64,000 nucleotides of DNA from Patescibacteria group bacterium (GTDB lineage Bacteria; Patescibacteriota; Microgenomatia; UBA10105; UBA927): assembly GCA_023379025.1 (NCBI GenBank), contig JAMCTH010000003.1, positions 103,362-167,361 of the forward strand. The letters are read 5' to 3'. Positions 3,170 to 18,424 of this stretch are shown in pieces. The translations under genes and the position numbers were made by a program. Position 1 is the stretch's first letter; each line of letters begins with the position of its first letter. The notes under the pieces were generated by a model that saw only the letters and a list, made by a program, of their open reading frames with translations, searched no databases and was not told where the DNA came from.

Positions 3170-5477
3170 CTCCTGTGAAATCGAGTGTTCCGCCGCAATA
3201 CCGGAGGATGTTCTGTACTGACTCGTTCAGAGAATGTTCGACCATATCCGGTGCAATATCCAATATCCCGTCCACGTTAATCCAGATATCCTTCGTATCT
3301 TCCGTCACCATGGTGCGCTTCGCATCGCGGTAATTAAAGTCAATATTATACCCGCCGACCCGGTCGTAATACGCGAGTTCCGTGGCCTTATATGCGGTAG
3401 GTTCCGTATCCCCAAGCAACAGTATTTCGTCACCCGCCCCGGCGTACCGGAGTACGGCCGGAAATTGCACCATATCCGCATTAAAGGCTCCGATAGATAC
3501 TCTATGACTCATGACAACCAGATTATATGCATCGACACAGGTATTTACGGTGTACAGTCCCTTTCCGAGCGCGACACGACGGAGAAGCGCTTCCGGTGAA
3601 GGCCGTCGGGAATGCCAGTCTATCCCCATATCCCGGTAGAGCTTCCGGTAGCTGATAATTTCCGGATACTTACCCAGTTCCTCTGTCGTCAACCCGGCAA
3701 GGCCGTTCAGGAATTTCTTTTTCTCTTCCTCAAGCCCGCGGTCCGAGGGAGCAATGCGGACTCCCCGAATCAGGGCGATACCGATGGAGACCGTCGGATA
3801 CCGCTCCTTCACCTTCGGATCTATGACAAAATAGTCCGGCTTGTGTATACCGTGAACGTTCTTTTCCCGAACGGTTACCTGAATTTTCGGGGCAAGTGTT
3901 AACCGTCCTATAACGGCGTCTTTCGGAAATTTCCTGAGAAGCCACCCGGCGCGCGGACCGTATGGTTTATCAAGTACTGAACAATAGAGCGCTTCAAAGG
4001 CAAGCTTTGGATCGAGATGCATCTCCTTTACCAGACGGAAGAGCTCTGACTGAAGTTTCTCCGGATCCTCTGCATATTTCCAGACTACTGCTAACTTCCG
4101 TAAGAAATCCCACTGTATGTCGGAAAGAGACAGATTCTCGTACGGCTTCACCGAAAGCTGGTATTTGTAATCATCCGGCGCGAACCTGGACACCCATACT
4201 CTCGCATACGTTTCCCGCTCGCCAAGGCATCGCACTTCTGCTTCGGTCAACCGTAATCCCTTAACGCACTCAAATTTCTGAAGCAAGTCGACGTTCGGCA
4301 ACTGTATGTAGTTGGCTATATCACGAAATCGGGGCAAAAACATCTCCGGATTTTTTGCGGGGGGTTCATGTATCTGAGACAGGAGAAATGCCCTCGATAA
4401 ATTTTCGTCGCCGTCCGTATGGTATGCCGTCCAGCAACGGTCGTATTCGTCAAATAAATCCGGTATTGCCATGGTCCCCGTCGGATCGATCTCTATAGCC
4501 TGCCGGTAATCCGTCCTCGTAAACAAAAACTTTCCGACTGGCGCGGGAAGGACCTTTGTAAGATCCCTTGCCTTAAGCCCCAACCCTTTTGATGAAGACA
4601 TTTTCTTGCCGCCGATGAGGAAAAATTCATACGGAAGATTATATGGCTCCGGTATATGAAAAACCTCGCGGCAGAGCTCCCGTGCTATATCCCGAGATCC
4701 GCCGGCAGATGAATGATCTTTTCCTGCTCCTTCGATCGTGACCCCCATCACTTTCCAATGTGCCGGCCAATCCACTTTCCACGGCAGTTTTCCCGGGTGA
4801 TGCTTCGGATCACCGGAGTCTGTAAAAGGACTGGTTTTCCCGTTATATCCGCATCCTTTTGCCCATGACACCATATCCGGTTCGCAGGTATAGGAAACGG
4901 TTGTACCGTCCCACCCGTGCACCCGCGTTGTGCCGAGTCTGCCGCAGTTTTCGCATACCACCTGAAGCGGGAGCCAACCTTTTTCCCGTTTTTTACTGCC
5001 ACTAACACGCTGATAAATATCCTGAATGAGGTCAGCATGATCGAGTGCTTCGCGAATCACGACATCGAATTTTCCCGCATGATACATATCCCAGGACGAA
5101 AGGAATGTTGCGGAGACCCCAAGCGATGTCAGCACCTTCTTAAAATCATTGGTGAAATACTCTGCAAATGTTGTTTCAGCATTATCCGGCGCACGCGCCA
5201 GCCGGAGCGGTTTGCCGAGTTCACTGGAAAGAGACATGAGTTCCGGGGGCAATCCGTCAACAGGATCGAAATCATTAAGAACAAAGGTAAATGTCACGTC
5301 GACTCCCCTGTCCAGGAGCGCCCGGTAGACAATGTCATGTACAAGCGGTCCCCGGAGTGACCCAATATGCGCAAAGCCGGACGGCGTAAACATATCATCC
5401 ACGTGATATGGCACAAATTTCCCTGTCTCAACGATTTTTTGTGCTACAGCATCTGCCCAAAACATATATACCCCCAT
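3159..5477 (-). CDS. lysK: Class I lysyl-tRNA synthetase fused to a C-terminal B3/B4-like tRNA-binding/editing domain
   Basis: 772 aa. HIGH-type motif FAHIGSLRG, a Zn-finger-like CENCGRL...C cluster and KMSKS motif KMSSSKG give an archaeal-type LysRS-I core of about 520 aa. About 230 extra C-terminal residues (YTVNTCVDAYNLVVMSHRVSIGAFNADMV...DFNYRDAKRTMV) resemble the PheT B3/B4 domain. Confidence 0.85.
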   Translation of the reverse strand: MGVYMFWADAVAQKIVETGKFVPYHVDDMFTPSGFAHIGSLRGPLVHDIVYRALLDRGVDVTFTFVLNDFDPVDGLPPELMSLSSELGKPLRLARAPDNAETTFAEYFTNDFKKVLTSLGVSATFLSSWDMYHAGKFDVVIREALDHADLIQDIYQRVSGSKKREKGWLPLQVVCENCGRLGTTRVHGWDGTTVSYTCEPDMVSWAKGCGYNGKTSPFTDSGDPKHHPGKLPWKVDWPAHWKVMGVTIEGAGKDHSSAGGSRDIARELCREVFHIPEPYNLPYEFFLIGGKKMSSSKGLGLKARDLTKVLPAPVGKFLFTRTDYRQAIEIDPTGTMAIPDLFDEYDRCWTAYHTDGDENLSRAFLLSQIHEPPAKNPEMFLPRFRDIANYIQLPNVDLLQKFECVKGLRLTEAEVRCLGERETYARVWVSRFAPDDYKYQLSVKPYENLSLSDIQWDFLRKLAVVWKYAEDPEKLQSELFRLVKEMHLDPKLAFEALYCSVLDKPYGPRAGWLLRKFPKDAVIGRLTLAPKIQVTVREKNVHGIHKPDYFVIDPKVKERYPTVSIGIALIRGVRIAPSDRGLEEEKKKFLNGLAGLTTEELGKYPEIISYRKLYRDMGIDWHSRRPSPEALLRRVALGKGLYTVNTCVDAYNLVVMSHRVSIGAFNADMVQFPAVLRYAGAGDEILLLGDTEPTAYKATELAYYDRVGGYNIDFNYRDAKRTMVTEDTKDIWINVDGILDIAPDMVEHSLNESVQNILRYCGGTLDFTGVVT

Positions 5478-5536
5478 TGTACCATCTGATGATCTGAACG
5501 ATCAGCATGTCTCTGCGATCGTACGCATCCAATATA

Positions 5537-5563
5537 CCAAAAACCCCGCACTCGGCGGGGGTC
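5537..5563 (-). terminator. Rho-independent terminator downstream of greA
   Basis: The minus strand reads GACCCCCGCCGAGTGCGGGGTTTTTGG: a GC-rich hairpin plus a U-run about 20 nt after the greA stop. Confidence 0.6.
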
Positions 5564-5582
5564 TTTGGAGCTTGCGTATTTT

Positions 5583-6050
5583 TTATTCTATATCGACGAT
5601 TTTGTAGACGAGCTTACCCGCCGGTGCCTCTACCTCAACGGTATCGCCCGGTTTTTTACCGAGGAGTGCCTTCCCGAGCGGCGACTCATGGGATATTTTC
5701 TTCTGTGTCGGATCTGCTTCCCATTCACCGACAACGGAAAACACTTCTTTTTTATTCCCGACATGGAGCGTCACCCTGCAACCGACATTTACCGTTTTGT
5801 TATGCCCGTTGTTGGACACGACTTTTGCCGCCCTGATGATCTCCTCAAGTTCCGCAATCCTGCCGTCGATAAACGCAAGATCCTGTTTTGCTGCGGCGTA
5901 CTCGCTGTTTTCGGACAAATCACCGAGATCCCTCGCATCGGACAGCCGTTTTACGACATCCGGGCGCTTCGTATCCACCAGCTCCTTATATTCAGCTTTA
6001 AGTTCCTCCAGGCCTTCTTTCGTCAGGACCTGTCTTTTGGTTTGATCCAT
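5583..6050 (-). CDS. greA: Transcription elongation factor GreA
   Basis: 155 aa. N-terminal coiled coil (LTKEGLEELKAEYKEL...DLSENSEYAAAK) and a C-terminal FKBP-like domain. Confidence 0.92.
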   Translation of the reverse strand: MDQTKRQVLTKEGLEELKAEYKELVDTKRPDVVKRLSDARDLGDLSENSEYAAAKQDLAFIDGRIAELEEIIRAAKVVSNNGHNKTVNVGCRVTLHVGNKKEVFSVVGEWEADPTQKKISHESPLGKALLGKKPGDTVEVEAPAGKLVYKIVDIE

Positions 6051-6347: not shown

Positions 6348-6421
6348 GGCGCGTTCGTCTAGTGGCCCAGGACGGCTGGTTCTCAACCAGCAAATCATGG
6401 GTTCGAATCCCATACGCGCTA
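6348..6421 (+). tRNA. tRNA-Glu (anticodon CUC)
   Basis: 74 nt cloverleaf. Acceptor GGCGCGU/ACGCGCU (G1-U72), D-arm UCGUCUAGUGGCCCAGGAC (the tRNA-Glu signature), anticodon stem GCUGG/CCAGC with loop UUCUCAA giving CUC, T-arm AUGGGUUCGAAUCCCAU, discriminator A. No encoded CCA. Confidence 0.85.
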
Positions 6422-6507
6422 CAATTTATTTCACTCAGTACAGATCGTCGGTTCGTTTACTCCGAAAGCGAAGGTATTGGGAGAATCCGACTGTGGGTAC
6501 CAATTTA

Positions 6508-7403: not shown

Positions 7404-7832
7404 TTATTCATCGATTTTTTCGGTTAGTTTAGAAATCAGTTCTTTTAACGTTTTAATGTTTTCAGGATCATCGCTATATGCGTCAAACCAGTAACTTTTT
7501 TCTCCATTCTCGCCTTTATGGAAATTTAGAAATCTTCCGAACCTTTCTATCCTAAAGCCTTTCTCTCCTCCAATTGAAAATAAATTAGAACGAGCTATTA
7601 AACCAATAAAAAGAATAATTAAGGTAATCCAAAGAAAAAGGTTATTTTGGAGAATAGATTCCCCTAGCAATAATTTCGCTAACTTTAGGACTAAAATCCA
7701 TAAAAGGAGATATAAAATAGGTGCCAAAAATCTAAAAGTTGGAACGATTATATTTTTATATGAACTTTCAATAAATTGTATTAACATAGTCATTTTTACT
7801 GGCCAATTAGTTTTCATAAATAAAAATCCCAC
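7404..7832 (-). CDS. Hypothetical small membrane protein (2 predicted TM helices)
   Basis: 142 aa. Hydrophobic stretches ILYLLLWILVLKLAKLLL and LFLWITLIILFIGLIA. AT-rich codon usage consistent with the island. Confidence 0.4.
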   Translation of the reverse strand: MGFLFMKTNWPVKMTMLIQFIESSYKNIIVPTFRFLAPILYLLLWILVLKLAKLLLGESILQNNLFLWITLIILFIGLIARSNLFSIGGEKGFRIERFGRFLNFHKGENGEKSYWFDAYSDDPENIKTLKELISKLTEKIDE

Positions 7833-8560
7833 AAACCTAAATTACTAAGTATACATATAATAGTTAGATTAAACTTTTGTTTTGGGACACTTTTTTCAAA
7901 ATAAGTTTTCAAATTATTGTAAGTAATATTTTGTAGTCCTATTGGTTGATGTGACCATATAAAAACAATTCCACTTCCAAACTTTTGTATTTGATAATAA
8001 CTTTCTAGTTGGTAAAGTGCTTGGTTATTTACTTTATCTATCAATTTTTGAAAAAACTTTTTCTCATCTAAACCCTGCGGGGAGAGAAGCTTTACCTCTA
8101 CTGGAGTTATTACGCTTCTATTTTTTGCAAGAAAATCTGGTGAGCGATTGTAATTGCTTTTTGGCAAATACTCAACTTCAGAAAAATTGCCAAAAAACTT
8201 AGTATTCACTAATCTAGTTGCAACGTCAAACTCTGCAAACATCTCTTCTACTCTTTGATCGTTTTTATTTCTTGTTATCTCTTTGCTGATATAAAAAATA
8301 GAGTTTGAGTTTTTAATTTTGTTGAGAACAGCTTGTGCACTGCTAACCCAGCTTTGATTTTGTAAATTATTTTTTAGCTTAATATAGATAGGTGAAGTTT
8401 GTAAATCCAATTTTTCATATTTATCCAATATCGGCTGGATTAGTTTTTCAATCTCTTTTTTTACTGAATCACGATTTCCTTTATCTTGCTTCATAAATTT
8501 GTATACAAGGAGCCTTATAAAAATTTTGTAGTTCCTGGAACTTGTTACAATAATATTCAA
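7814..8560 (-). CDS. Hypothetical protein (island)
   Basis: 248 aa ORF in the AT-rich island, overlapping both neighbours by short stretches (operon-like). No recognisable motifs. Confidence 0.4.
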   Translation of the reverse strand: MNIIVTSSRNYKIFIRLLVYKFMKQDKGNRDSVKKEIEKLIQPILDKYEKLDLQTSPIYIKLKNNLQNQSWVSSAQAVLNKIKNSNSIFYISKEITRNKNDQRVEEMFAEFDVATRLVNTKFFGNFSEVEYLPKSNYNRSPDFLAKNRSVITPVEVKLLSPQGLDEKKFFQKLIDKVNNQALYQLESYYQIQKFGSGIVFIWSHQPIGLQNITYNNLKTYFEKSVPKQKFNLTIICILSNLGLWDFYL

Positions 8561-8765
8561 TATCTTCTTCTGATAAATGATGTCCTACTTTTGAGAGTTT
8601 TTCTCTTAACCATAATCCATCCTTTGTTTTCCTACTGTATCGGCAAACGCACTTCACAAAAGCGTAAAATCTCTCCAGATCTAACGGGTGGAAAGATTCC
8701 GGATATTGACCAATCCATAATTTAAAAGATTGATCTATCGGATGTTGGTTATGTATTAAAGTCAT
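8481..8765 (-). CDS. Hypothetical small protein (island)
   Basis: 94 aa ORF directly downstream of the methyltransferase gene. Cys/His-containing (CVCRY...HH...YYC). No family assigned. Confidence 0.35.
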   Translation of the reverse strand: MTLIHNQHPIDQSFKLWIGQYPESFHPLDLERFYAFVKCVCRYSRKTKDGLWLREKLSKVGHHLSEEDIEYYCNKFQELQNFYKAPCIQIYEAR

Positions 8766-8801
8766 ATAAAAATCACTATCTTACCGACCAATTATTTTTC
8801 A

Positions 8802-11800
8802 TTAACTGCTTTCTACAACTGCTATTTCTTCCGTCGTTAGGCCGTAGAGTTTATAAACCAATTGGTCAATTTGCTTTTCGTATTCGATAACCTGTGATTG
8901 CTTAATGGAGTTTCGTAGATAATCCCTGTCTGTGGTAATGACTAGGATTTTATTGACCATACTGACAATCTTTTCTATGTTTATTTTATTTGTATTCTTA
9001 ATTGGGAAAAGTTCAATTTTATATTTTTTCCAACGGCTTGTGCCCATACCCGAACTTGTTGATATTTGCTCAAAATACCAGAGCCCAAGTTTTGAGTTTA
9101 AAATTCCTAGTAAATACTTAAGATTGTCACCCACCATAGCAAAGAGAGTCGCTTCGGCAATAAACCCTTTGTCATCATAAGTAAATTTTGGTTTATCAGA
9201 TAACTCTCCCCAAATAATTTTTGGTTTCTCAAATTCTTCAAAATAAACACAATTTCTAAGATTAGTCCAATGTGAGCCCTTATTGTGTCTAATTTCTAAT
9301 TTATCCCTGTACTGCGCTAAATGTTTATAAATTGCAGGGTAATTTTTCGCCACATCAATTCTTGGAAGCTTGCCTTTTATTCCGTTATGGCTATTTATTA
9401 GCCAGAGGTCTTGCCATTCATAATAATATTTTCCGACATCACGACCCCTCAACATTGGCTTAATTATTTCTGCACTTTTTGGGTCTACTTTAGTCAGTTT
9501 GTTTTTTGTCTCGGTGCTAATTACGAAAGCATCATTATAACCATTTAGAATACCTATATAAATTCGCTGGTTTAGTTGCTTTAGTGGGGTAGAATCTTTT
9601 TCTAGCTTTGCTCTAAGTGAAGCTGTTTCTAAATTGCTTATTATCCATCCGTTGTCATCAAGATTATCAAGAGTCACATAGTTATTGCTGAAATAACTAC
9701 TAATATCTACGTACCGGTTCGAGGTTAAATTAAAACTAAGTGCTCTAAGTTTATTTTGGAATACACTTTTTTCGAGGACAATTACATTACTCTCTACAAT
9801 AGCTGTATCGAATACTTGAGAATTCTCGAAATCAATTAGGATTAAAGGGTTGGTGTTTTCTTTAAAGTATTTTCTCAATAACGCACCATACTTTGTTTTC
9901 ATCCATGAGTTCGAACTGATATAAGAAAGTGTCCCCATATTTTTTAAAAGATTTACCCCTTTTTCATAAAACACACAATAAACGTCCGAAGATTTCGAAT
10001 AAGTCTTAAAATCCAACTTTGATAACTCTTGACTTACTTTTTTATTCTTTTGTAACTGAAAATAGGGTGGGTTAGCTATGACTACATCAAAACCACCGTT
10101 CTTTTCAAACACTTCGCTAAAATTAAGTTTCCAAAGGAAAAATGGCTTGATGTTTGCTTTTTTGAAGCGCTCGATTTCCGGCAAGAGAGATAATTTTTTC
10201 TGCTCCTTAACAGATGCCTCAATCAAATCCCAAGTTAAGTTTTCAATTTCTCTCTTGATTTCGTCTTTCTCAGTTTTGTGCGCAGTCTTAAAGAATTGAG
10301 CTTTGAGTTCTTGTAGTTGCTTGGTAATTCTCTCTGCCTCTGAGATAAGATCAAAGAAGTGTTGTTGTTCTAATTTTGCTTCGGACTCAAAAAGCTTAAT
10401 ACCCTCGTATTCCTCGAGTAAGCTATTGCCCTGCATAATTTTATAATCAAGGTTTGGCAGGGGTTTAATTTGCTTGATATCCTGCTCATCAACAATTAAA
10501 GAAAGCCACAAACGAAGTTTGGCTATTTCCACAGCTCCGGGGTCTATATCTACCCCGTACAGGCAGTTTTGAATGGCGTGGCGCTTGAAGTCATAGATAC
10601 TGCGGCCGTTATCCGATAGGTAATTGGTGAGGATGTTGCGAACTCTAATTACTTCGGTCATCATGCCGACCAAAAAGGCACCGGACCCAACCGCAGGATC
10701 GCAAACATGGATTTTTTCTAATTTTTCATCAAGAAGGTGTGCGTTGTCGCGAATACTTTGTGGAAGTCTAAAGTGATAGTCTTTTGTTTCCCGACCTTCA
10801 TTTATAACCCGTGCTTCGTGCTCAATGGCTGTTTCCCCTAAGCGGATGAGGGTTTCGATATCATCCCGTCTAACTTTGCCGTCTAATTCTGTGAGTAGAT
10901 AGTTAATTAAACTTTCCTGACACATATAGTGGACAATCTCACGCGGGGTGTAGTAAGTGCCTTTGGATTTGCGGTCTTTAACTTCCAAAAGGTTCTCAAA
11001 AACCTTTCCCAGCATCTCCGGATCAACGGCCACCTCACGCTCAAGCGGCTCATCTTCCTTAACCGTGAAGTTGTAGCGGTCAAAAACATCTAAAATCCCG
11101 TCTCCGGTGTCGCCCTCTTTGGTTTTCCTATTATTCGAAAAAAGCTCATCGGGTAAGCGAATATCGGTGTGCACCCAGTCATAGTTTCCAAGGGGATCAA
11201 AAAGTCCTCCGTTTAAGAAGGGAATTTTGCAGTTAAATTTGCTATAAAAATCATCTGTACGCTCAACGGCTAAGGCTTCGTAAAAAAGAGGTTCCAGGGT
11301 GTCGTTGAAGAAATTATCGTAAGGAGCTATCGTTTTTTCAAAAAGCCGGCGTAAAAAGTCTTTTGGACCCGTACCCCAAACGGCATCTCTGGCAACCCCA
11401 AACCAGCCCTTTTTTTGTAAAAAGTAAAGGAAAACAATCTGACCAAGAAGCTTTTTAGCAAAGTCGGTGGTGTCGATATTTTTCTCTTGGAAGTCAGATT
11501 TTATCTTGGCGTCTTTGGCAACCATCGCGTCGAGCGCCTCTTTGGTATCCAAAAACAGCTTTTTATACTTTTCAAAGAAGTCTTTGGTAACAACCTCAAC
11601 GCTGAAAGCTGACTCAAGATCACTAAGAGCGGGTTTAAAGTCCGTGTCTTTGAGAATTGGCAGAAGTTGTCTTTGAGCGGTGTGAGTGTTTTCGTTGGCG
11701 CCAACTAAAAAAGAAAAACGGCGAGCCGGGGTAAGCTCGGTTATGGCCTTTATCTTTCCGGCTTTTGACTCTCCCAAGTGATAATCCATCTTTACTAAGG

Positions 11801-12200
11801 AGAGCCGCCAATCGTCAGAGTCTTTGGTATAAAAAGCCACAAGCGCGGCGTCTTTGGCGATACCGCCTCGACTGCCGTTTAAGTACCAAGCAATAAAGTT
11901 TCTTTGCATGGTACGCGCCCGCTCTAAAGCGCTTTGTTTATTTAAACAAACTGCTAAGACTTCAATTTTATGGCCGTCAACGTCCTCATACTTACCCAGA
12001 CGTTCAAGCGTTTTTATATGTGAGTCGTAGGCGTCGGGTATGAGATTGCCTCGATAGATAAAAGTATCGGTATCTAGGAAGTGAAAGAGGTTTTTGGCAA
12101 AGATTAAAAAACGCTCCCTATCGAAGGGATTTTCAAAAGTGCTCTTAATCAGATTTAATGCCCACGTTTCATTCATGGATGTCTTCCTCCAATAACTCAA
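8802..12200 (-). CDS. Large gamma-class N6-adenine DNA methyltransferase, Eco57I / type IIG / PglX / DrmMI-like
   Basis: 1132 aa. Motif X-like GTYYTPREIVHYM, SAM-binding motif I VCDPAVGSGAFL and catalytic motif IV DVVIANPPY. About 400 aa N-terminal region and about 400 aa C-terminal putative target-recognition region, an architecture shared by type IIG/IIL enzymes and BREX/DISARM methylases. Confidence 0.85.
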   Translation of the reverse strand: MSYWRKTSMNETWALNLIKSTFENPFDRERFLIFAKNLFHFLDTDTFIYRGNLIPDAYDSHIKTLERLGKYEDVDGHKIEVLAVCLNKQSALERARTMQRNFIAWYLNGSRGGIAKDAALVAFYTKDSDDWRLSLVKMDYHLGESKAGKIKAITELTPARRFSFLVGANENTHTAQRQLLPILKDTDFKPALSDLESAFSVEVVTKDFFEKYKKLFLDTKEALDAMVAKDAKIKSDFQEKNIDTTDFAKKLLGQIVFLYFLQKKGWFGVARDAVWGTGPKDFLRRLFEKTIAPYDNFFNDTLEPLFYEALAVERTDDFYSKFNCKIPFLNGGLFDPLGNYDWVHTDIRLPDELFSNNRKTKEGDTGDGILDVFDRYNFTVKEDEPLEREVAVDPEMLGKVFENLLEVKDRKSKGTYYTPREIVHYMCQESLINYLLTELDGKVRRDDIETLIRLGETAIEHEARVINEGRETKDYHFRLPQSIRDNAHLLDEKLEKIHVCDPAVGSGAFLVGMMTEVIRVRNILTNYLSDNGRSIYDFKRHAIQNCLYGVDIDPGAVEIAKLRLWLSLIVDEQDIKQIKPLPNLDYKIMQGNSLLEEYEGIKLFESEAKLEQQHFFDLISEAERITKQLQELKAQFFKTAHKTEKDEIKREIENLTWDLIEASVKEQKKLSLLPEIERFKKANIKPFFLWKLNFSEVFEKNGGFDVVIANPPYFQLQKNKKVSQELSKLDFKTYSKSSDVYCVFYEKGVNLLKNMGTLSYISSNSWMKTKYGALLRKYFKENTNPLILIDFENSQVFDTAIVESNVIVLEKSVFQNKLRALSFNLTSNRYVDISSYFSNNYVTLDNLDDNGWIISNLETASLRAKLEKDSTPLKQLNQRIYIGILNGYNDAFVISTETKNKLTKVDPKSAEIIKPMLRGRDVGKYYYEWQDLWLINSHNGIKGKLPRIDVAKNYPAIYKHLAQYRDKLEIRHNKGSHWTNLRNCVYFEEFEKPKIIWGELSDKPKFTYDDKGFIAEATLFAMVGDNLKYLLGILNSKLGLWYFEQISTSSGMGTSRWKKYKIELFPIKNTNKINIEKIVSMVNKILVITTDRDYLRNSIKQSQVIEYEKQIDQLVYKLYGLTTEEIAVVESS

Positions 12201-13005
12201 TGCGCGTAGCGCGCATCAACGACCTCATTTGATCGATCGCTACCTGATTAAGTGAAGCTAACCGTTTATTTTGCGGCAGCCCCTCTTTTATTAAAAGAGC
12301 ATTCAATGATTCCAAATTTGTCAGACAAACAAGTTGCGCGGCAGTTGCATAATCACGAATATTTCCCGGTTTATGTGGATTGGTATCCCGCCACTCGGTA
12401 GCGGTTATGCCGAATAAAGCTTTGTTGAGCACGTCTGCTTCGCTGGCATAGATAAAATTTATTTGCTGTTGAGAGAGTACCGGAGGGATCAAATGAGCTT
12501 TTACAGCGTCTGTGTGTATTCTGTAATTGATTGCCGCTAAATTCCGTTTCAAATCCCAACCCAATTTTTTCTGCTCGATTTCTTCTTCCTTAAGTCTCTG
12601 AAATTCTTTAATGAGATAGATTTTAAATTCGGGGCTAATCCACATGCCAAATTCAAAAGCGATGTCTTTGTGAGCGTATGTGCCGCCATATCTTCCCGCC
12701 CTTGCTTTCAACCCGATAGCATTTGTTTTTCGAACCCAATCTTTGACGCTGATTTTGTAACTGTTTAGACCAGCCTGGCTTCTAATTATGGCGAATTCGC
12801 CATAATTAAACTGAGGATTATTAATCCGCTCCCAAATGCCCAAAAAATCAACGGTGTTCCTGTTTCTGAGCCAATCTGAAATGAAAAAGTCCCCGTCTTT
12901 GGCTTTAAGCATATCAGTGAGTGAAATATAGTCGCCCTCTTTTGTTTGGAATAAGGTTATTTGTCTGCCCTTGACCGTTAATTGTTTTGAACTAGATTTT
13001 TTCAT
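12169..13005 (-). CDS. KilA-N domain protein
   Basis: About 279 aa from MKKSSSKQ. Central YGGTYAHKDIAFEFGMWISPEFKIYLIKEF matches the KilA-N/APSES-type DNA-binding signature (GTWVHP.LA..FA.WLSP.F). The start lies 13 nt after the helicase stop and the stop overlaps the methyltransferase start. Confidence 0.65.
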   Translation of the reverse strand: MKKSSSKQLTVKGRQITLFQTKEGDYISLTDMLKAKDGDFFISDWLRNRNTVDFLGIWERINNPQFNYGEFAIIRSQAGLNSYKISVKDWVRKTNAIGLKARAGRYGGTYAHKDIAFEFGMWISPEFKIYLIKEFQRLKEEEIEQKKLGWDLKRNLAAINYRIHTDAVKAHLIPPVLSQQQINFIYASEADVLNKALFGITATEWRDTNPHKPGNIRDYATAAQLVCLTNLESLNALLIKEGLPQNKRLASLNQVAIDQMRSLMRATRIELLEEDIHE

Positions 13006-16000
13006 ATAAATATTCGGATAAAATGACTTCTCTTGGTCCGGCAACTTGTGCCGAACTTTCAGCCAATGTTTCTTTGAAAAACTCGCTTGGAATACCAAGT
13101 TTCAAAAGCGACAGCAATTTAAGCGGATTTTTATCTTTCTTGTATAGCTCGTCAAGATTTTTGATTAGTCTTTTGGTTGTGGACTTAGGCAAGGCGCCTT
13201 CTTCCAGACGAGCCATAACATTACGAAGGTAGAGCTCATCTTCTTCGGTATAGCCCTTGAAGTCTTTGACTTCCCGGGCCTTGAGAATGTTAAGAAGCTG
13301 GGCGCTGGTGTCACGGCCTCGTTTACCCTTAACTTCTTGGGCTTCTTCGGTTGTGGCCAAAACAAACGCCTGTTTATTTTTCGAAAGCAGTTTATAAAAA
13401 TCTTCTCCTACCGGTTCCCGTCCGGCTTCTTTGGCAACTTCCAGTTTTTGCGCGGCTGAAATAAAGTCAAGCTCCATCGAATCACCACTGGCAACAGCGA
13501 AGAATTTTTGCAGTTTGCCTTTTCTGAAATAAGTAAGTAAAGAATTGGTTTTATCGTCATCCTTATCAATTCTTGCGGTGCGGGCTTTTTTAGGCAGTCT
13601 TTTGATTTTTTCAAATAAGTCCGGGTTAGTATCCCTAATATCGCGAATGATTGAGAGGTATTTAAGATCGCTTTCTTCTTCCTCGTCCTCACCGGTAATA
13701 ACTTCTTTGGAAGTTAAGCGAATCCAAAGGTCGTGCGACTTAATTTCCTCGCCTTCGGTGAGAAGCCTGGCGTCTGCCCCAAGAAGTTCTATAAAAGCTT
13801 CGATTTTAGCTTCGGCCGCCTCTTTGAGTTTAATTTGGTCGTTTGACTGTTTAGTAGGGAAGAAATTAAACGTATATATTTTGTCAAAGGGAGTATCAAC
13901 GCGGTTAATGCGGCCTGTTCTTTGCATTAAACGGGTAGGATTCCAGGGAATGTCATAATTGATAACCACGTTGGACTGGTGAAGGTTGACGCCTTCTGAA
14001 AGTACCTCGGTGGTGACTAGAATCCGGTAATCGTCTTTGGGGAATCGGGCTCCCGCGTCAAAGTTCTCAATCACTTTCTCGCGCACGCTGGCTCCGGAGC
14101 TTCCATGAAACGAGAGCACTTGTTCGGGGAATTTAGTACTTAGGTTTTTCTCAAGGTATTGGGCGGTTTCTTTAGATTCGGTAAAAATAATAAGTTTACT
14201 CTCACCCAAAATTTTACGAGATAAGAGGATGTCTATAAATTTGGCCAGTTTAGGGTCCCCACTGACACGGCGCCAAAGCTTGGTGATATCTCTTAAAATG
14301 GCCAGGTCGTTTTCGAGATCAACTTTGAAAGAGTCTTCAAAGTCTTCTGATTTATAACGCTGGGCCATATCTTCATCTACCAGCCTTTGTATCGCGGCTT
14401 CGTCGTCCTGCTCCAAAAGCTCGAAGATTTTATTGATATGCTTTTTACTGACATAAACATTGCCTTTTTCAAACTCATCTAAAAACCGCTCGTATGAAGC
14501 GATAAACCTATCAAGCGTATTTCTGAACGCAAAGAAGCTACTTTCCAAGCGTTTAACCAAAAGGATTTTCATAAACTTACCCATGTTCTTCTGACCTTGT
14601 TTGTCTGCTTGAGATACGTCGCCTTTGTAGTAGGTAAGGGGCATGTAACGGGCGTATTTGAATTTTTGTGTTATAGACTCGATAGTTGTGGTAAAAATCG
14701 CATCTTCTTCTTTATCGAGCTGGTATAAAATCGGCTCCGGATCTGCGACATCGGGAAATTTGAGGTTTTGCTTTTCCAGGTCTTTACTAAAATAATTGAT
14801 AATTTCACTGCGGGTACGCCTAACCATCAGATATTTAAGGACTTTTTCTCTTATTTCCTTGGCATTATCACGAACGGTGTCGAGATACTCGGCGCGGTTT
14901 CGCTGACGGTCCAAGCCCTTAAGTCTTTTTTCCAGACTTGAGAAGAAGATTTCCAAGTTGGGAAGGTTAGGAATGGTACTTTTCTTGGGTTTTTGAAATA
15001 GCTTGATTTGGCTCAAGATATCTTTCGGCGAATTGTTATAAGGGGTAGCCGTAACTAAAATTACCCTTTTACCACGAGTAATCTGCGCTAGCTTCTCATA
15101 AGTAATGTTATCCTCGGTTCTGAAGCGGTGAGCCTCATCTACAAACACATTGCTGTATTTATCCGTGCCTCTTTCAATTAACTTTTCCAGCTTTCCCAGA
15201 GATTCAAAGTCGGCGGAGACTTTAAAGTCGGAAAAAACATTCGGCCAAGAGCCCGGATTGTTCTCATCCAAAAGAACCGGCGGCGCTATGACCAAGTTTC
15301 TGCCGTCGAGCTGGTTGGCCAGCATAGCGGCAATATAGGTTTTACCCAAACCCACAACGTCGGAGATGAAAACACCGCCGTATTCATCTAGGATTTTTTT
15401 AGCGTTGAGAACTGCTTGCTCCTGATATTCAAGTTTTTTGAATTTAACGGGGGTGTACTTGTAAAAAACGTCTCCGGTTTGACTGATCTGATCTTTGAAA
15501 TACTCATAAAGGAATTTGAGGTAAAGCTCATAGGGGGTGATGGTGTTATTCAGCCAAGTTTTGTTATTGACCGTTTCGATGTATTTTTCGGAGACATCAA
15601 CGGCGTCTTTCCAAAGCTGGTTAAACTTATCTTGGGCAAATCGGTAATCGGACGCAGTTTTAAGCTCAACATTAAATTCAAGATTATCAACCAAGCCTTT
15701 TTGCGAGAAATTGCTTGAGCCGGTGATAACACGGCCAATGTCTCGGTCTCCTTCTTTGAAAGTGATGATATAGAGCTTGGCATGGATGTTGGCGGTAGGA
15801 TAGGCCCTTATTTCCAGCTTTCCGCTTTTTATCCATTCGATAAACCTAGTTACACCCTGTTCTATGCTCTCGGCGTCCTCGGATTCTTCCAGCTCGGAGG
15901 CAATGAGAGTTGAAAATTCCTCTTTGGCTTCGGCATGCGAGAAGGTGAGCGATAGTTGTTCTTCTGCGGCCTTGATATTCTCAAGCGTTTCGCGTCCGGT

Positions 16001-16189
16001 GCCGATTCCTATTAAAATGCGGATTTTCTCGGTTTTCTCAAGAACCGGATAGAGCTTGTAAAACCCGCTGGTATAAAAATAGCCGACTAAACTATCGAAA
16101 AAACGAGCGTCTTTAATTAAAACCCTGAAGCGGTTTAAAAGGCTTATTTCTTTTTCGTTTGTTATAAACGTTAGGTCTGAAACTTGCAT
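12992..16189 (-). CDS. PLD-family nuclease domain fused to SNF2-family (SF2) helicase
   Basis: 1065 aa. N-terminal HxK PLD motif HAKLYIITF...GSSNFS. Then Walker A GLGKTYIAA, DEAH box VFVDEAHRFR, motif III VTATPYNNS and motif VI QRTGRINR. About 300 aa helical C-terminal tail of unknown function. Confidence 0.85.
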   Translation of the reverse strand: MQVSDLTFITNEKEISLLNRFRVLIKDARFFDSLVGYFYTSGFYKLYPVLEKTEKIRILIGIGTGRETLENIKAAEEQLSLTFSHAEAKEEFSTLIASELEESEDAESIEQGVTRFIEWIKSGKLEIRAYPTANIHAKLYIITFKEGDRDIGRVITGSSNFSQKGLVDNLEFNVELKTASDYRFAQDKFNQLWKDAVDVSEKYIETVNNKTWLNNTITPYELYLKFLYEYFKDQISQTGDVFYKYTPVKFKKLEYQEQAVLNAKKILDEYGGVFISDVVGLGKTYIAAMLANQLDGRNLVIAPPVLLDENNPGSWPNVFSDFKVSADFESLGKLEKLIERGTDKYSNVFVDEAHRFRTEDNITYEKLAQITRGKRVILVTATPYNNSPKDILSQIKLFQKPKKSTIPNLPNLEIFFSSLEKRLKGLDRQRNRAEYLDTVRDNAKEIREKVLKYLMVRRTRSEIINYFSKDLEKQNLKFPDVADPEPILYQLDKEEDAIFTTTIESITQKFKYARYMPLTYYKGDVSQADKQGQKNMGKFMKILLVKRLESSFFAFRNTLDRFIASYERFLDEFEKGNVYVSKKHINKIFELLEQDDEAAIQRLVDEDMAQRYKSEDFEDSFKVDLENDLAILRDITKLWRRVSGDPKLAKFIDILLSRKILGESKLIIFTESKETAQYLEKNLSTKFPEQVLSFHGSSGASVREKVIENFDAGARFPKDDYRILVTTEVLSEGVNLHQSNVVINYDIPWNPTRLMQRTGRINRVDTPFDKIYTFNFFPTKQSNDQIKLKEAAEAKIEAFIELLGADARLLTEGEEIKSHDLWIRLTSKEVITGEDEEEESDLKYLSIIRDIRDTNPDLFEKIKRLPKKARTARIDKDDDKTNSLLTYFRKGKLQKFFAVASGDSMELDFISAAQKLEVAKEAGREPVGEDFYKLLSKNKQAFVLATTEEAQEVKGKRGRDTSAQLLNILKAREVKDFKGYTEEDELYLRNVMARLEEGALPKSTTKRLIKNLDELYKKDKNPLKLLSLLKLGIPSEFFKETLAESSAQVAGPREVILSEYLYEKI

Positions 16190-16237: not shown

Positions 16238-16771
16238 CTATTTACTCCAAATACCACGCTTCTTTTTCTGTGCTTCTTCTTGAGCTTTCAGTAATTCATC
16301 CTGATACTTCAGCTTTCTCCGATCCTGATAGATAGTAACTTTCACTAAGCCTTGTTTCGCAAGCTCCACCACTACATTTTTCCCTTCGATAAACGGATAG
16401 GCAAGCACCCTGCCGAACCGGTCTGACGTGTAGGCGTCATATTCAAACGTGACGGTTTTTCCCTGAACGAGTTTGATCATCGCTTTCGTTGCATCTTCCT
16501 CGAACGGTTGCCCGGAATCCGGAGCATTCACCCCGACAAATCGGACGATCTGACCATTTGCTAACTCTATAGTGTCGCCATCTATAACTCGTTTGACCGT
16601 TTCCTTTGCTGGAAGGTTCCGGATAGTGGTTGTTGAGACATTGGGTTGTTCGAGTATTGTTTTTACCTGTTGTTCATACTTTGTCCCACCAAGAAAGGAT
16701 AACAGAGCAACGAGGAGTGTTGCCGGCACTAAGACCAGTTTGTTGGTGTTGTACTTCGATTTTGCATTCAT
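16238..16771 (-). CDS. Thermonuclease (staphylococcal nuclease / SNase-like), membrane-anchored or secreted
   Basis: 177 aa. N-terminal TM helix, VIDGDTIEL...RFVGVNAPD catalytic motifs of the SNase fold, and a Lys-rich tail. Confidence 0.85.
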   Translation of the reverse strand: MNAKSKYNTNKLVLVPATLLVALLSFLGGTKYEQQVKTILEQPNVSTTTIRNLPAKETVKRVIDGDTIELANGQIVRFVGVNAPDSGQPFEEDATKAMIKLVQGKTVTFEYDAYTSDRFGRVLAYPFIEGKNVVVELAKQGLVKVTIYQDRRKLKYQDELLKAQEEAQKKKRGIWSK

Positions 16772-17058
16772 GGCGATTTGATAAGACTGGCAAACCGGAG
16801 TTTGTACAGGCTTTCCAGTAAATCAGATCCGGCGTATCCAGCCAAAAGTGACATCCGCCAATCGACGTTCATGATGAGTCCTGACATAAGACCGACGAGC
16901 ATGGATACCAAAATGGTGAATCCGAATTGCTTCCAGGAGAACTGAAATGTTTTGGGGTCAAACTCCTTGGCTTTAGTGATACCAACTAGTCCACGCACAA
17001 AGCCGCCAGTAGCACCGGCAATGGCCTGTCCAATAATAGTCCCGACCATAATTTCCAC
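16768..17058 (-). CDS. Small membrane protein (2 TM), unknown function
   Basis: 96 aa, Gly/Ala-rich TM helices. Overlaps the nuclease start by 4 nt (translationally coupled). Confidence 0.4.
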   Translation of the reverse strand: MEIMVGTIIGQAIAGATGGFVRGLVGITKAKEFDPKTFQFSWKQFGFTILVSMLVGLMSGLIMNVDWRMSLLAGYAGSDLLESLYKLRFASLIKSP

Positions 17059-17071
17059 CCCCTTTCTGTAG

Positions 17072-18424
17072 TTAAAACAGATAGACGGTTGCTTTTCCTT
17101 TACCTTCCATTTTCAGCATACCACGGGAAACAAGAGCAGATAAATAGTCGGTTGCCGTACTTTGTGAGATATGTAACAAATCACGCACCTGTTCGTTTGT
17201 AATTTTCTTTTTTTCCTGGGCAAACGAAAAGATTTTCGATATCGATTCTTCCCGTTTTTTCTTTTTCGCATCATTGCCTTTGACTGAATTTTCTTTCCTG
17301 CGCGCGTCAAACATGGCGGTTGCCTGTTTTTCGATTTCTTCTTGAGAAGGTTGGGGTGGTTGGGGTGATATGGGAGATACGGGAACATCCGGCTGTATGG
17401 GAGGAGTTACCGGCTGCGGTTGTATCACCGGTTCCGGTTGGATGGGTTGTGGCGAAGGTAGCGGTTTGTCCGTGTGTTGGGAGAGATATGGTGACGGATC
17501 AATATACCCCAGATATCCGTTATTTACATCCGGATTGTTTGGTTGCATCCCGAAATGAAGATGCGGTCCGGTCACAAACCCGGTAGCATCGGAAAGCCCG
17601 ATGGCTTGGGCTTTTGTGACGATATCGTTGACCAACACCCCGAAGGATTGCAGATGGCAATAGATACTCGATCCCCAGGAATGCTTGATGGTGATGGAAA
17701 TACCAAAATCCCCGTTGTCGCCAACTTGGGTAACTACCCCATCATCACATGCAAGAACGTCGGTCCCACTGGGTAATCCGAAATCCAAACCGTTATGTCC
17801 AACAATACCCCACTCCTGATATTTTTTCTTGATGGCCTCATTATCCGGTTGGCTCCCGAACCCAAACAAAACGGGAAATTCTGCGTAAAACGGATATGCA
17901 AGGACCGGAATTGCGGGTGGAGTTGGTTGATTTTGGGGCGCTGTAGTGCCCTGCACGGTTTGATTGTCCGGATTTTCCGGTTCAGTTACAGGAGACACAG
18001 TTTGAGCAGATGGAGTACTGATAGCTGGCACGGATGGAGTCGGACTGGGTACAGATGAAGGCTCTGGTGATGATGTGTCGGATGGTTGAGCCGGTGCTGG
18101 TGCGGGAACGTCAGTTGCCACTGGTTCCGGTTGGTCCGACGAGGGTTGATTTACTACTGAAGCTGGATTTGAAGGTGACGGCTGAACTGGTTGGGTATTG
18201 GCCGATTCGACACTGGATCCCGACAAGTCGGATGTCGGTTCCGGCCGATTGGGAACCTCGGACATTACACCGGTATTTGAGCCTGGATCTGGTGGAGAAA
18301 CCGGATCGTCTGCCATGATTCTAGAATACACCCCACCCTTCGCTAAAGCTACGGCGGGCAAGCAAAACAGGAATCGGCCAAAACCGGAGGCTGTACCGAC
18401 AAACGCCAACCGGCAATCGGCCAA
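17072..18424 (-). CDS. M23 (LytM-type) peptidase with Pro/Ser/Thr-rich linkers and a C-terminal winged-helix domain
   Basis: 450 aa. HNGLDFG...D...GPHLHF M23 metallopeptidase motifs. Long low-complexity P/S/T/Q linkers. C-terminus ITNEQVRDLLHISQSTATDYLSALVSRGMLK looks like a DeoR/MarR-type wHTH. The true start may be the internal MADDPVSPP near 18316. Confidence 0.75.
   Translation of the reverse strand: MADCRLAFVGTASGFGRFLFCLPAVALAKGGVYSRIMADDPVSPPDPGSNTGVMSEVPNRPEPTSDLSGSSVESANTQPVQPSPSNPASVVNQPSSDQPEPVATDVPAPAPAQPSDTSSPEPSSVPSPTPSVPAISTPSAQTVSPVTEPENPDNQTVQGTTAPQNQPTPPAIPVLAYPFYAEFPVLFGFGSQPDNEAIKKKYQEWGIVGHNGLDFGLPSGTDVLACDDGVVTQVGDNGDFGISITIKHSWGSSIYCHLQSFGVLVNDIVTKAQAIGLSDATGFVTGPHLHFGMQPNNPDVNNGYLGYIDPSPYLSQHTDKPLPSPQPIQPEPVIQPQPVTPPIQPDVPVSPISPQPPQPSQEEIEKQATAMFDARRKENSVKGNDAKKKKREESISKIFSFAQEKKKITNEQVRDLLHISQSTATDYLSALVSRGMLKMEGKGKATVYLF

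Follow-up and report, generated by a model that had tools for sequence, protein, structure and literature searches.

In a 64,000-nucleotide (nt) stretch of DNA from a Patescibacteria group bacterium (contig JAMCTH010000003.1, positions 103,362 to 167,361; hereafter the window) we examined a gene for a large DNA methyltransferase together with an upstream gene on the same minus strand, which encodes a PLD-type nuclease fused to a SNF2 motor and is called PLD::SNF2 here. A third gene, of the KilA-N family, stands between the two and overlaps both, by 14 nt with PLD::SNF2 and by 8 nt with the methylase gene. The three genes and the motifs of the motor-nuclease lie as follows:

12992-16189, minus strand: PLD::SNF2 motor-nuclease gene, the proposed restriction subunit; 1065 amino acids (aa); Pfam PLDc_2, SNF2-rel_dom, ResIII and Helicase_C
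15707..15784, minus strand: HKD motif of the PLD nuclease, present once in each chain (HAKLY ... GSSNF)
13901..15352, minus strand: SNF2 ATPase core, with GLGKT at 15338-15352, DEAH at 15128-15139, TATP at 15041-15052 and QRTGRINR at 13901-13924
12169-13005, minus strand: KilA-N gene, 278 aa; Pfam KilA-N 6.6e-24; PADLOC candidate PDC-S22, 424 bits
8802..12176, minus strand: gene of the methylase and proposed specificity subunit, 1124 aa; the mechanical open reading frame (ORF) reaches TTG 12200

A preliminary description of this DNA had given the methylase 1132 aa, and the corresponding ORF is indeed present at 8802-12200 on the minus strand, opened by a TTG codon. Translation, however, almost certainly begins at ATG 12176 and yields a product of 1124 aa, because four signs agree on this codon. 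A GGAGGA ribosome-binding site lies at 12185-12190 on the minus strand, spaced 8 nt from the ATG; the ATG shares bases with the stop of the gene before it (ATGAATGA); the starts of all homologues coincide with it; and the deposited protein P0001 (Patescibacteria group bacterium) is 1124 aa long and 100% identical. Residue numbers below are counted from this ATG unless the 1132-aa ORF is named.

Counted in the 1132-aa ORF, the motifs YYTPREIV (motif X, aa 416-423, window 10932-10955), DPAVGSGAFL (motif I, aa 501-510, window 10671-10700) and NPPY (motif IV, aa 710-713, window 10062-10073) were all located, in the very order from which the preliminary description had derived a gamma class. The Pfam matches agree with it: Eco57I (PF07669) at 3.4e-40 with 138.4 bits against a gathering threshold of 25.3, TaqI_C at 5.5e-17 with 62.6 bits against 26.5, N6_Mtase at 8e-14, and also MmeI_Mtase. 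Because the motif order X, I, IV is combined with a C-terminal TaqI_C recognition domain (match at aa 914-1067), the protein is, judged by its sequence, a gamma-class N6-adenine DNA methyltransferase of the Eco57I type. A sequence search with the methylase and recognition module gave CamA (180 bits) and M.BseCI (155 bits) as the nearest solved structures, followed by the more remote relatives BrxX/PglX, MmeI, BpuSI and TaqI. Foldseek with a model of the methylase returned CamA at 2.8e-26 with a TM-score of 0.68 on the target; this full-length model is poor (pLDDT, the predicted local distance difference test, 73; pTM, the predicted template modelling score, 0.46), with low confidence in the conserved methylase segments, and it was used solely for the Foldseek ranking, as it says nothing about how the domains are arranged.

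The long extensions that had been noted on either side of the methylase core could be resolved further. The C-terminal one is a target-recognition domain followed by a conserved tail, while the N-terminal one of about 400 aa is composed of two modules. The modules are listed here with their mean pairwise identity in an alignment of 30 homologues; the limits of the N-domain were taken from an AlphaFold2 (AF2) model as well.

aa 1-205, 11562..12176, minus strand: alpha/beta N-domain, family-specific; identity 0.59; AF2 pLDDT 85.7
aa 206-385, 11022..11561, minus strand: helical domain with the motifs FLYFLQKKGWFG and FLNGGLFD; identity 0.73, the highest of all modules
aa 386-580, 10437..11021, minus strand: methylase N-lobe with motifs X and I; identity 0.71
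aa 581-690, 10107..10436, minus strand: variable helical (coiled-coil-like) insert between the methylase lobes; identity 0.42
aa 691-810, 9747..10106, minus strand: methylase C-lobe with motif IV; identity 0.37
aa 811-1065, 8982..9746, minus strand: target-recognition domain of the TaqI_C type, hypervariable; identity 0.25-0.30
aa 1066-1124, 8805..8981, minus strand: conserved C-terminal helical tail (...QIDQLVYKLYGLT.EEI...); identity 0.41

One rival reading takes the methylase for a self-contained Type IIG enzyme. Its N-domain would then be a nuclease that has diverged in sequence and cleaves close to the recognition site, and the role left to PLD::SNF2 would be that of a separate or accessory gene for defence. 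Indeed, the domain occupies the place of the nuclease in MmeI, DrdV and BpuSI, and the PADLOC model REase_MTase_IIG (PDLC03596), which we take to be derived from REBASE Type IIG entries, matches the methylase end to end with 1120.8 bits, the alignment running from model position 1 through the whole protein in two stretches. Relatives such as Cj0031, furthermore, restrict phage without a helicase partner. The domain itself, however, argues against a nuclease. Its profile (aa 1-205) found no Pfam or PDB sequence match, even at E<=10, and the fold searches returned only weak matches of mixed folds, with no significant structural relative and no significant nuclease match. The sole candidate for a D...(D/E)xK layout is D65 ... 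D/E72-x-L74. Here position 74, that of the would-be ExK lysine, is Leu in 39/39 homologues, and D65 is replaced by N, A, Y or S in five of the 39. The acidic residue at position 72 is kept in the close clade, as the Type IIG idea would have it, but gives way to Gln in the distant Prevotella homologue. From the searches and these residues we judge it very probable that the methylase lacks a nuclease domain. The preliminary description had likewise seen no PD-(D/E)xK motif in the N-terminal region, and a clear Mrr/PD-ExK triad, which it had set against its own view, was sought in the N-domain and not found. Of its label "type IIG-like", the match to the PADLOC cluster stands, whereas no nuclease domain is recognisable in the same polypeptide; the PADLOC label is the name of a sequence cluster rather than a tested activity, and the next-best PADLOC IIG cluster, PDLC03601, has a different N-terminus and aligns only from residue 242. 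Other residues of the N-domain are strictly kept. R59, R88, R92, D109, W123, R124, R153, E162 and H165 are invariant in the 39 homologues, showing that the domain is under strong selection for some function, and K108 is Arg in 1/39.

We then turn to the partner gene. The GTDB collection with one genome per species was searched with a profile of the N-domain, a query that knows nothing of the partner. Matches came from at least 392 genomes, and 80 loci were fetched. Of the 79 testable loci, which belong to many phyla, 76 (96%) have a PLD::SNF2 homologue of 48-80% identity as the next gene upstream, on the same strand as the methylase gene. Within the set of related loci L001-L083, where L003 is a duplicate of L059, 79 loci hold both genes. 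The two are separated by less than 200 nt in 49 of these, typically by about 15 nt, and in the remaining 30 a small gene on the same strand sits between PLD::SNF2 and the methylase gene. The same arrangement recurs in three independently picked, more distant homologues. A Prevotella replicon (L084) pairs the two genes at 29%/32% identity, and a haloarchaeal plasmid carries the pair with the gene order reversed. The proteins also diverge together: the Spearman coefficient with the pairwise identities of PLD::SNF2 is 0.70 for methylase aa 1-580 and 0.73 for the N-domain, and it is 0.07 for the recognition domain. As far as sequence comparison can tell, the methylase and PLD::SNF2 genes make up a single operon that is conserved and inherited as a unit. 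A self-contained Type IIG enzyme would leave the 96% co-occurrence, the operon-level spacing and the co-divergence with PLD::SNF2 unexplained, and together with the substitutions at the candidate nuclease residues and the missing profile matches of the N-domain this makes it, in our view, quite unlikely.

The family is large. At 50% identity the N-domain falls into 1058 clusters, with members in Patescibacteria, Dehalococcoidia, Nitrospirota, anammox Planctomycetota, Bacteroidota, Spirochaetes and, at a greater distance, haloarchaea. Among 150 listed matches, P0137 is the only one in which the N-domain match starts late (residue 77); in the others it starts no later than residue ~12. Most of these 150 proteins have 1000-1300 aa, the shorter ones being probably fragments. 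Methylase relatives that have no N-domain occur on the Deinococcus radiophilus plasmid pRadio5 (L086) and on the Nostoc plasmid pANSO36A (L087), where several genes (e.g. DUF262) separate the methylase from a downstream "helicase-related protein". The Nostoc "helicase-related protein" is a PLD::SNF2 homologue, and two extra genes stand between the pair in this plasmid. These two loci hint that the superfamily is broader and that its accessory genes vary.

The partner protein carries PLDc_2 at aa 105-193, followed by SNF2/ResIII/Helicase_C. H136, K138, G157, S158 and N160 of its HKD motif are invariant in 39/39 sequences. The SNF2 ATPase motifs are invariant in 39/39 pairs too, save for H354, which is Q in one sequence. 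With only one HKD motif per chain, an active site would need a dimer of PLD::SNF2, a requirement for which BfiI, SauUSI and MANTIS MtsD are precedents. No segment of PLD::SNF2 averages below 0.50 identity, in contrast to the recognition domain of the methylase with its 0.25-0.30, and no reader-domain family is found among its Pfam matches.

The variability of the pair is concentrated in the methylase. Some homologues share 74-83% identity that is confined to the first 53-72% of the protein, and the guanine-plus-cytosine (GC) content within the window gene drops from 43-44% at 10437-12176 to 31-34% in the C-lobe and recognition domain (8982-10106), a value that resembles the 29-33% of the ORFs downstream. 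This pattern suggests that the recognition module came by recombination from a donor of lower GC. Related loci carry further copies. In the Dehalococcoides locus L001 an inverted copy of the recognition domain lies downstream (13351-14175, minus strand), in L010 six additional short stretches match the conserved C-terminal tail (7631-14209; 23-35 aa, 51-83% identity), and in the Prevotella locus L084 inverted methylase fragments adjoin an Mpi invertase (11704-16041). Some relatives repeat the conserved tail at silent recognition-domain cassettes; the window itself has no such cassettes. Since the recognition domain is hypervariable and exchanged and PLD::SNF2 has no comparably variable region, there is a strong case that the methylase would be the specificity subunit for cutting too, so that PLD::SNF2 would receive its specificity from the methylase. 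A switch of specificity in the methylase alone would be lethal if the nuclease read the DNA independently, which implies that the nuclease reads through the methylase. Type I, III and ISP enzymes follow the same logic.

These data also bear on the idea that the two proteins are merely independent neighbours, with PLD::SNF2 a SauUSI-like Type IV enzyme, modification-dependent or structure-sensing, and the methylase an orphan or epigenetic enzyme like CamA. That the nearest solved methylase is the orphan CamA, in the sequence search as well as by Foldseek, fits this idea, as do the existence of PLD-SF2 enzymes such as SauUSI that act alone on modified DNA and the three loci in which a methylase has no nuclease nearby. 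The PLD::SNF2 protein, however, lacks a variable recognition region and matches no reader-domain family in Pfam. The near-obligatory adjacency, the spacing of about 15 nt, the gene overlaps in the window and the correlation of 0.70 argue for one unit, and a recognition domain that is both hypervariable and shuffled is the characteristic sign of a specificity factor for restriction under selection by phages. We therefore consider two independent neighbours very unlikely.

Our reading of these sequence data is that the methylase would be the modification-and-specificity subunit, and PLD::SNF2 the restriction subunit, of a two-protein ATP-dependent restriction-modification system, to which we assign a probability of roughly 0.72. 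The earlier proposal that restriction is supplied in trans by the PLD::SNF2 protein gains support from the absent nuclease signature, the 76/79 linkage and the invariant HKD and ATPase residues. In the mechanism that we propose, the methylase would bind a short, probably asymmetric site with its recognition domain and would methylate one adenine, which would mark the host DNA as self. At an unmethylated site the methylase would instead recruit or activate PLD::SNF2, possibly through the N-terminal 205-aa domain and the helical domain. These two are suggested as the coupling surface because both are conserved and co-diverge with PLD::SNF2. The SNF2 motor would then hydrolyse ATP in order to move along the DNA or to remodel it. 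Finally, because each chain has a single HKD motif, two PLD::SNF2 chains would have to pair to build one HKD active site and cut the DNA, which would favour cutting where two complexes meet. The weakest step is the contact with PLD::SNF2. We propose the N-domain as a coupling or regulatory module, and that it touches PLD::SNF2 is a guess.

Several observations weigh against this reading. Three testable loci have no PLD::SNF2 in the fetched upstream DNA (about 5 kb for L043, 10 kb for L060 and L077), and L013 retains only a remnant of the gene. In L060 the longest methylase ORF begins 264 nt inside the matched region, suggesting an N-terminal disruption, and in L043 the match is limited to the first 250 methylase residues; these two partnerless copies may be decaying. 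The asymmetric site and the methylation of one strand would follow from no more than two points, the presence of one recognition domain and the likeness to CamA. The nine invariant residues of the N-domain, moreover, are all polar or aromatic, six of them Arg or His, and the domain might itself be catalytic or bind a ligand. For no member of the family did we find experiments on methylation, complex formation, ATPase activity or cleavage in the literature.

A related alternative makes more of the N-domain. In it the domain would be a new module, for example a reader of methylation state or DNA structure or else a phosphoesterase, that licenses PLD::SNF2. The pair would then not be a Type ISP or Type III system with its parts rearranged but would stand as a minimal class of its own among ATP-dependent restriction systems. 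It is based on the lack of a significant structural relative, on the nine residues that are invariant across phyla and on the place of the domain at or near the start of the protein in the 150 listed matches; we hold it to be rather unlikely, if worth keeping in view. That the N-domain might be a fused MtsB/DUF3780 was also considered; this has no sequence support, as the DUF3780 family is absent from the Pfam scan.

For the gene pair as such we found passing computational mentions in the literature and no experimental study. The Aravind group, according to a paper that cites its work, noted that HKD-SNF2 fusions occur in restriction contexts of bacteria. Milman et al. (2023) list a Bacteroides ovatus methylase that is paired with a PLD/SNF gene and described as a Cj0031 homologue. 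The window pair fits this arrangement, with PLD::SNF2 adjacent on the same strand and a methylase that carries the 205-aa N-domain.

Among the known systems, Type ISP enzymes are the closest in function, and the two-protein system that we propose looks like one of them split into two polypeptides. Nuclease, SF2 ATPase motor, connecting region, gamma-class adenine methylase and C-terminal recognition domain follow in the same order, and methylation of one strand of an asymmetric site with ATP-dependent cutting would be expected in both; at the sequence level the likeness has been shown for the methylase core only. Type ISP enzymes, however, are single polypeptides with an Mrr/PD-(D/E)xK nuclease, whereas the window system consists of two genes and has a PLD nuclease with a single HKD motif, its motor is SNF2-like, and its methylase chain opens with a 205-aa domain of its own. 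Compared with Type III Mod/Res enzymes, the pair represents a similar pairing made from different parts. With Type IIG/IIL enzymes (MmeI, DrdV, BpuSI, Eco57I, Cj0031) the methylase shares the homologous gamma-class core (Pfam Eco57I, MmeI_Mtase) and the layout of N-terminal domain, helical domain, methylase and recognition domain, but its N-domain has no PD-(D/E)xK signature. Unlike Cj0031, whose describing paper mentions no helicase, the window family nearly always has a motor-nuclease partner. CamA and M.BseCI, finally, are stand-alone methylases of about 580 aa that lack both the 385-aa N-terminal region and a motor-nuclease partner.

MANTIS offers the nearest parallel for the effector. Its MtsD is a dimeric PLD-SF2 protein and acts downstream of a recognition complex that contains a methylase. 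Self DNA is marked by hemimethylation, and MtsD, which has no recognition domain of its own, is predicted to act after an unmethylated site has been recognised. With MANTIS and Gao_RL (BREX-related type 2) the window pair shares an N-terminal HKD nuclease fused to an SF2 ATPase, a likeness of architecture only. MANTIS also requires the DUF499 AAA+ ATPase MtsA and the small co-regulator MtsB, neither of which occurs among the scanned large window ORFs from about 300 to 28,500. Its methylase MtsC is of the alpha class with a central recognition domain, in contrast to the gamma-class window methylase with its C-terminal TaqI_C domain. For phospholipD_antiphage, an NCBIfam family of PLD proteins that act against phages, PLD::SNF2 scores 150 against a cut-off of 1100. 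Class 1 DISARM combines the same three domain types in its SNF2 helicase DrmD, its methylase DrmMI and its PLD protein DrmC, but the window system has two genes, fuses PLD to SNF2 and lacks DrmA and DrmB.

The likeness to BREX and DISARM must be weighed also because the NCBI product name of the methylase is PglX and because the preliminary description had called it PglX/DrmMI-like. The methylase would then be PglX or DrmMI, and the remaining system would lie elsewhere or be lost. Partial PADLOC matches to DrmMI (134 bits), PglX (97 bits) and DrmD (123 bits) speak for this, but they cover the methylase or ATPase cores only. The NCBIfam scores of the methylase stay below the cut-offs (BREX_1_MTaseX 118 against 500, BREX_2 74.5 against 400, BREX_6 66 against 900), as does that of the SNF2 partner for DISARM_DrmD (136.7 against 610). 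Neither PglZ, BrxC or other BREX genes nor the helicase DrmA or DrmB (DUF1998) were found among the scanned window ORFs or the listed homologous loci. No PglZ, BrxC, BrxL, DrmA or DrmB lies within about 15 kb, where the flanks are housekeeping genes, and the listed neighbourhoods of three related loci hold no BREX or DISARM partner genes either. The system is not a member of BREX, DISARM or MANTIS. The earlier PglX/DrmMI-like label had to be given up, as the methylase core alone is shared, the scores fall short and the partner genes are absent; that the methylase belongs to a dispersed or degraded BREX or DISARM system is, in our estimate, highly improbable.

The remaining genes of the region concern cargo and surroundings. 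Two further features were recorded:

7404-8765, minus strand: three small AT-rich ORFs downstream of the methylase, of 94, 248 and 142 aa; 29-33% GC
6348-6422, plus strand: tRNA-Glu (CTC), which borders a low-GC island

The KilA-N gene of the window, on which the preliminary description was silent, is absent from all 83 related loci L001-L083. A role as third core component was therefore rejected, and the gene is optional cargo rather than a core part. Other loci carry other insert genes, namely NYN in L001, L008 and L012, Bro-N in L010 and L023, DUF3800 in L014, and Schlafen AlbA_2 with HATPase_c_4 in L036, L046 and L073. Type I operons hold similar types of inserted cargo. NYN is found among the "embedded" defence candidates of Payne et al. 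(2024). Beside the Dehalococcoides copy of the system in L001, a HATPase_c_3 (MORC-like) gene at 3802-5787 on the minus strand may be a separate defence gene. The three small ORFs at 7404-8765 gave no Pfam, PADLOC, NCBIfam or PHROGs match at thresholds, save for a marginal PHROG match (E 0.0025) of the 248-aa ORF; with no family match and no homologue in any related locus, they are without support as components of the system.

Upstream of the operon, at 16238-18424 on the minus strand, lie genes for a homologue of staphylococcal nuclease of the secreted type, a holin-like membrane protein of 96 aa and an M23 peptidase that carries a C-terminal winged-helix domain; these genes are not part of the system. 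The flanks of the operon hold tRNA synthetases, GreA, tRNA-Glu, a two-component system, HtrA, a housekeeping Lon and pyruvate:ferredoxin oxidoreductase (POR). Between about 6000 and 18000 the window forms an island of low GC (33-46%, compared with 50-55% elsewhere), and the tRNA-Glu (CTC) gene at its border is a possible integration site.

In summary, the methylase and PLD::SNF2 genes form a widespread and so far uncharacterised pair, built from familiar components and belonging to a family that is probably mis-annotated. Its members currently bear the names "Type IIG", "PglX" or "N-6 DNA methylase", and the partner is called "helicase-related protein". The REBASE-derived "Type IIG" label and the NCBI name "PglX" are probably wrong about the function, and if the two-protein model is true, the present annotations misstate how the DNA gets cut. 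The pair may be the simplest methylase-guided PLD motor-nuclease, with two proteins compared with four in MANTIS. Restriction by MANTIS has not yet been reconstituted in vitro, and a two-protein system might be more tractable for studying how HKD-SF2 effectors are activated. The finding is also relevant to the reading of methylomes and to genetic access in bacteria whose genomes are very small, for example the Patescibacteria (candidate phyla radiation, CPR).

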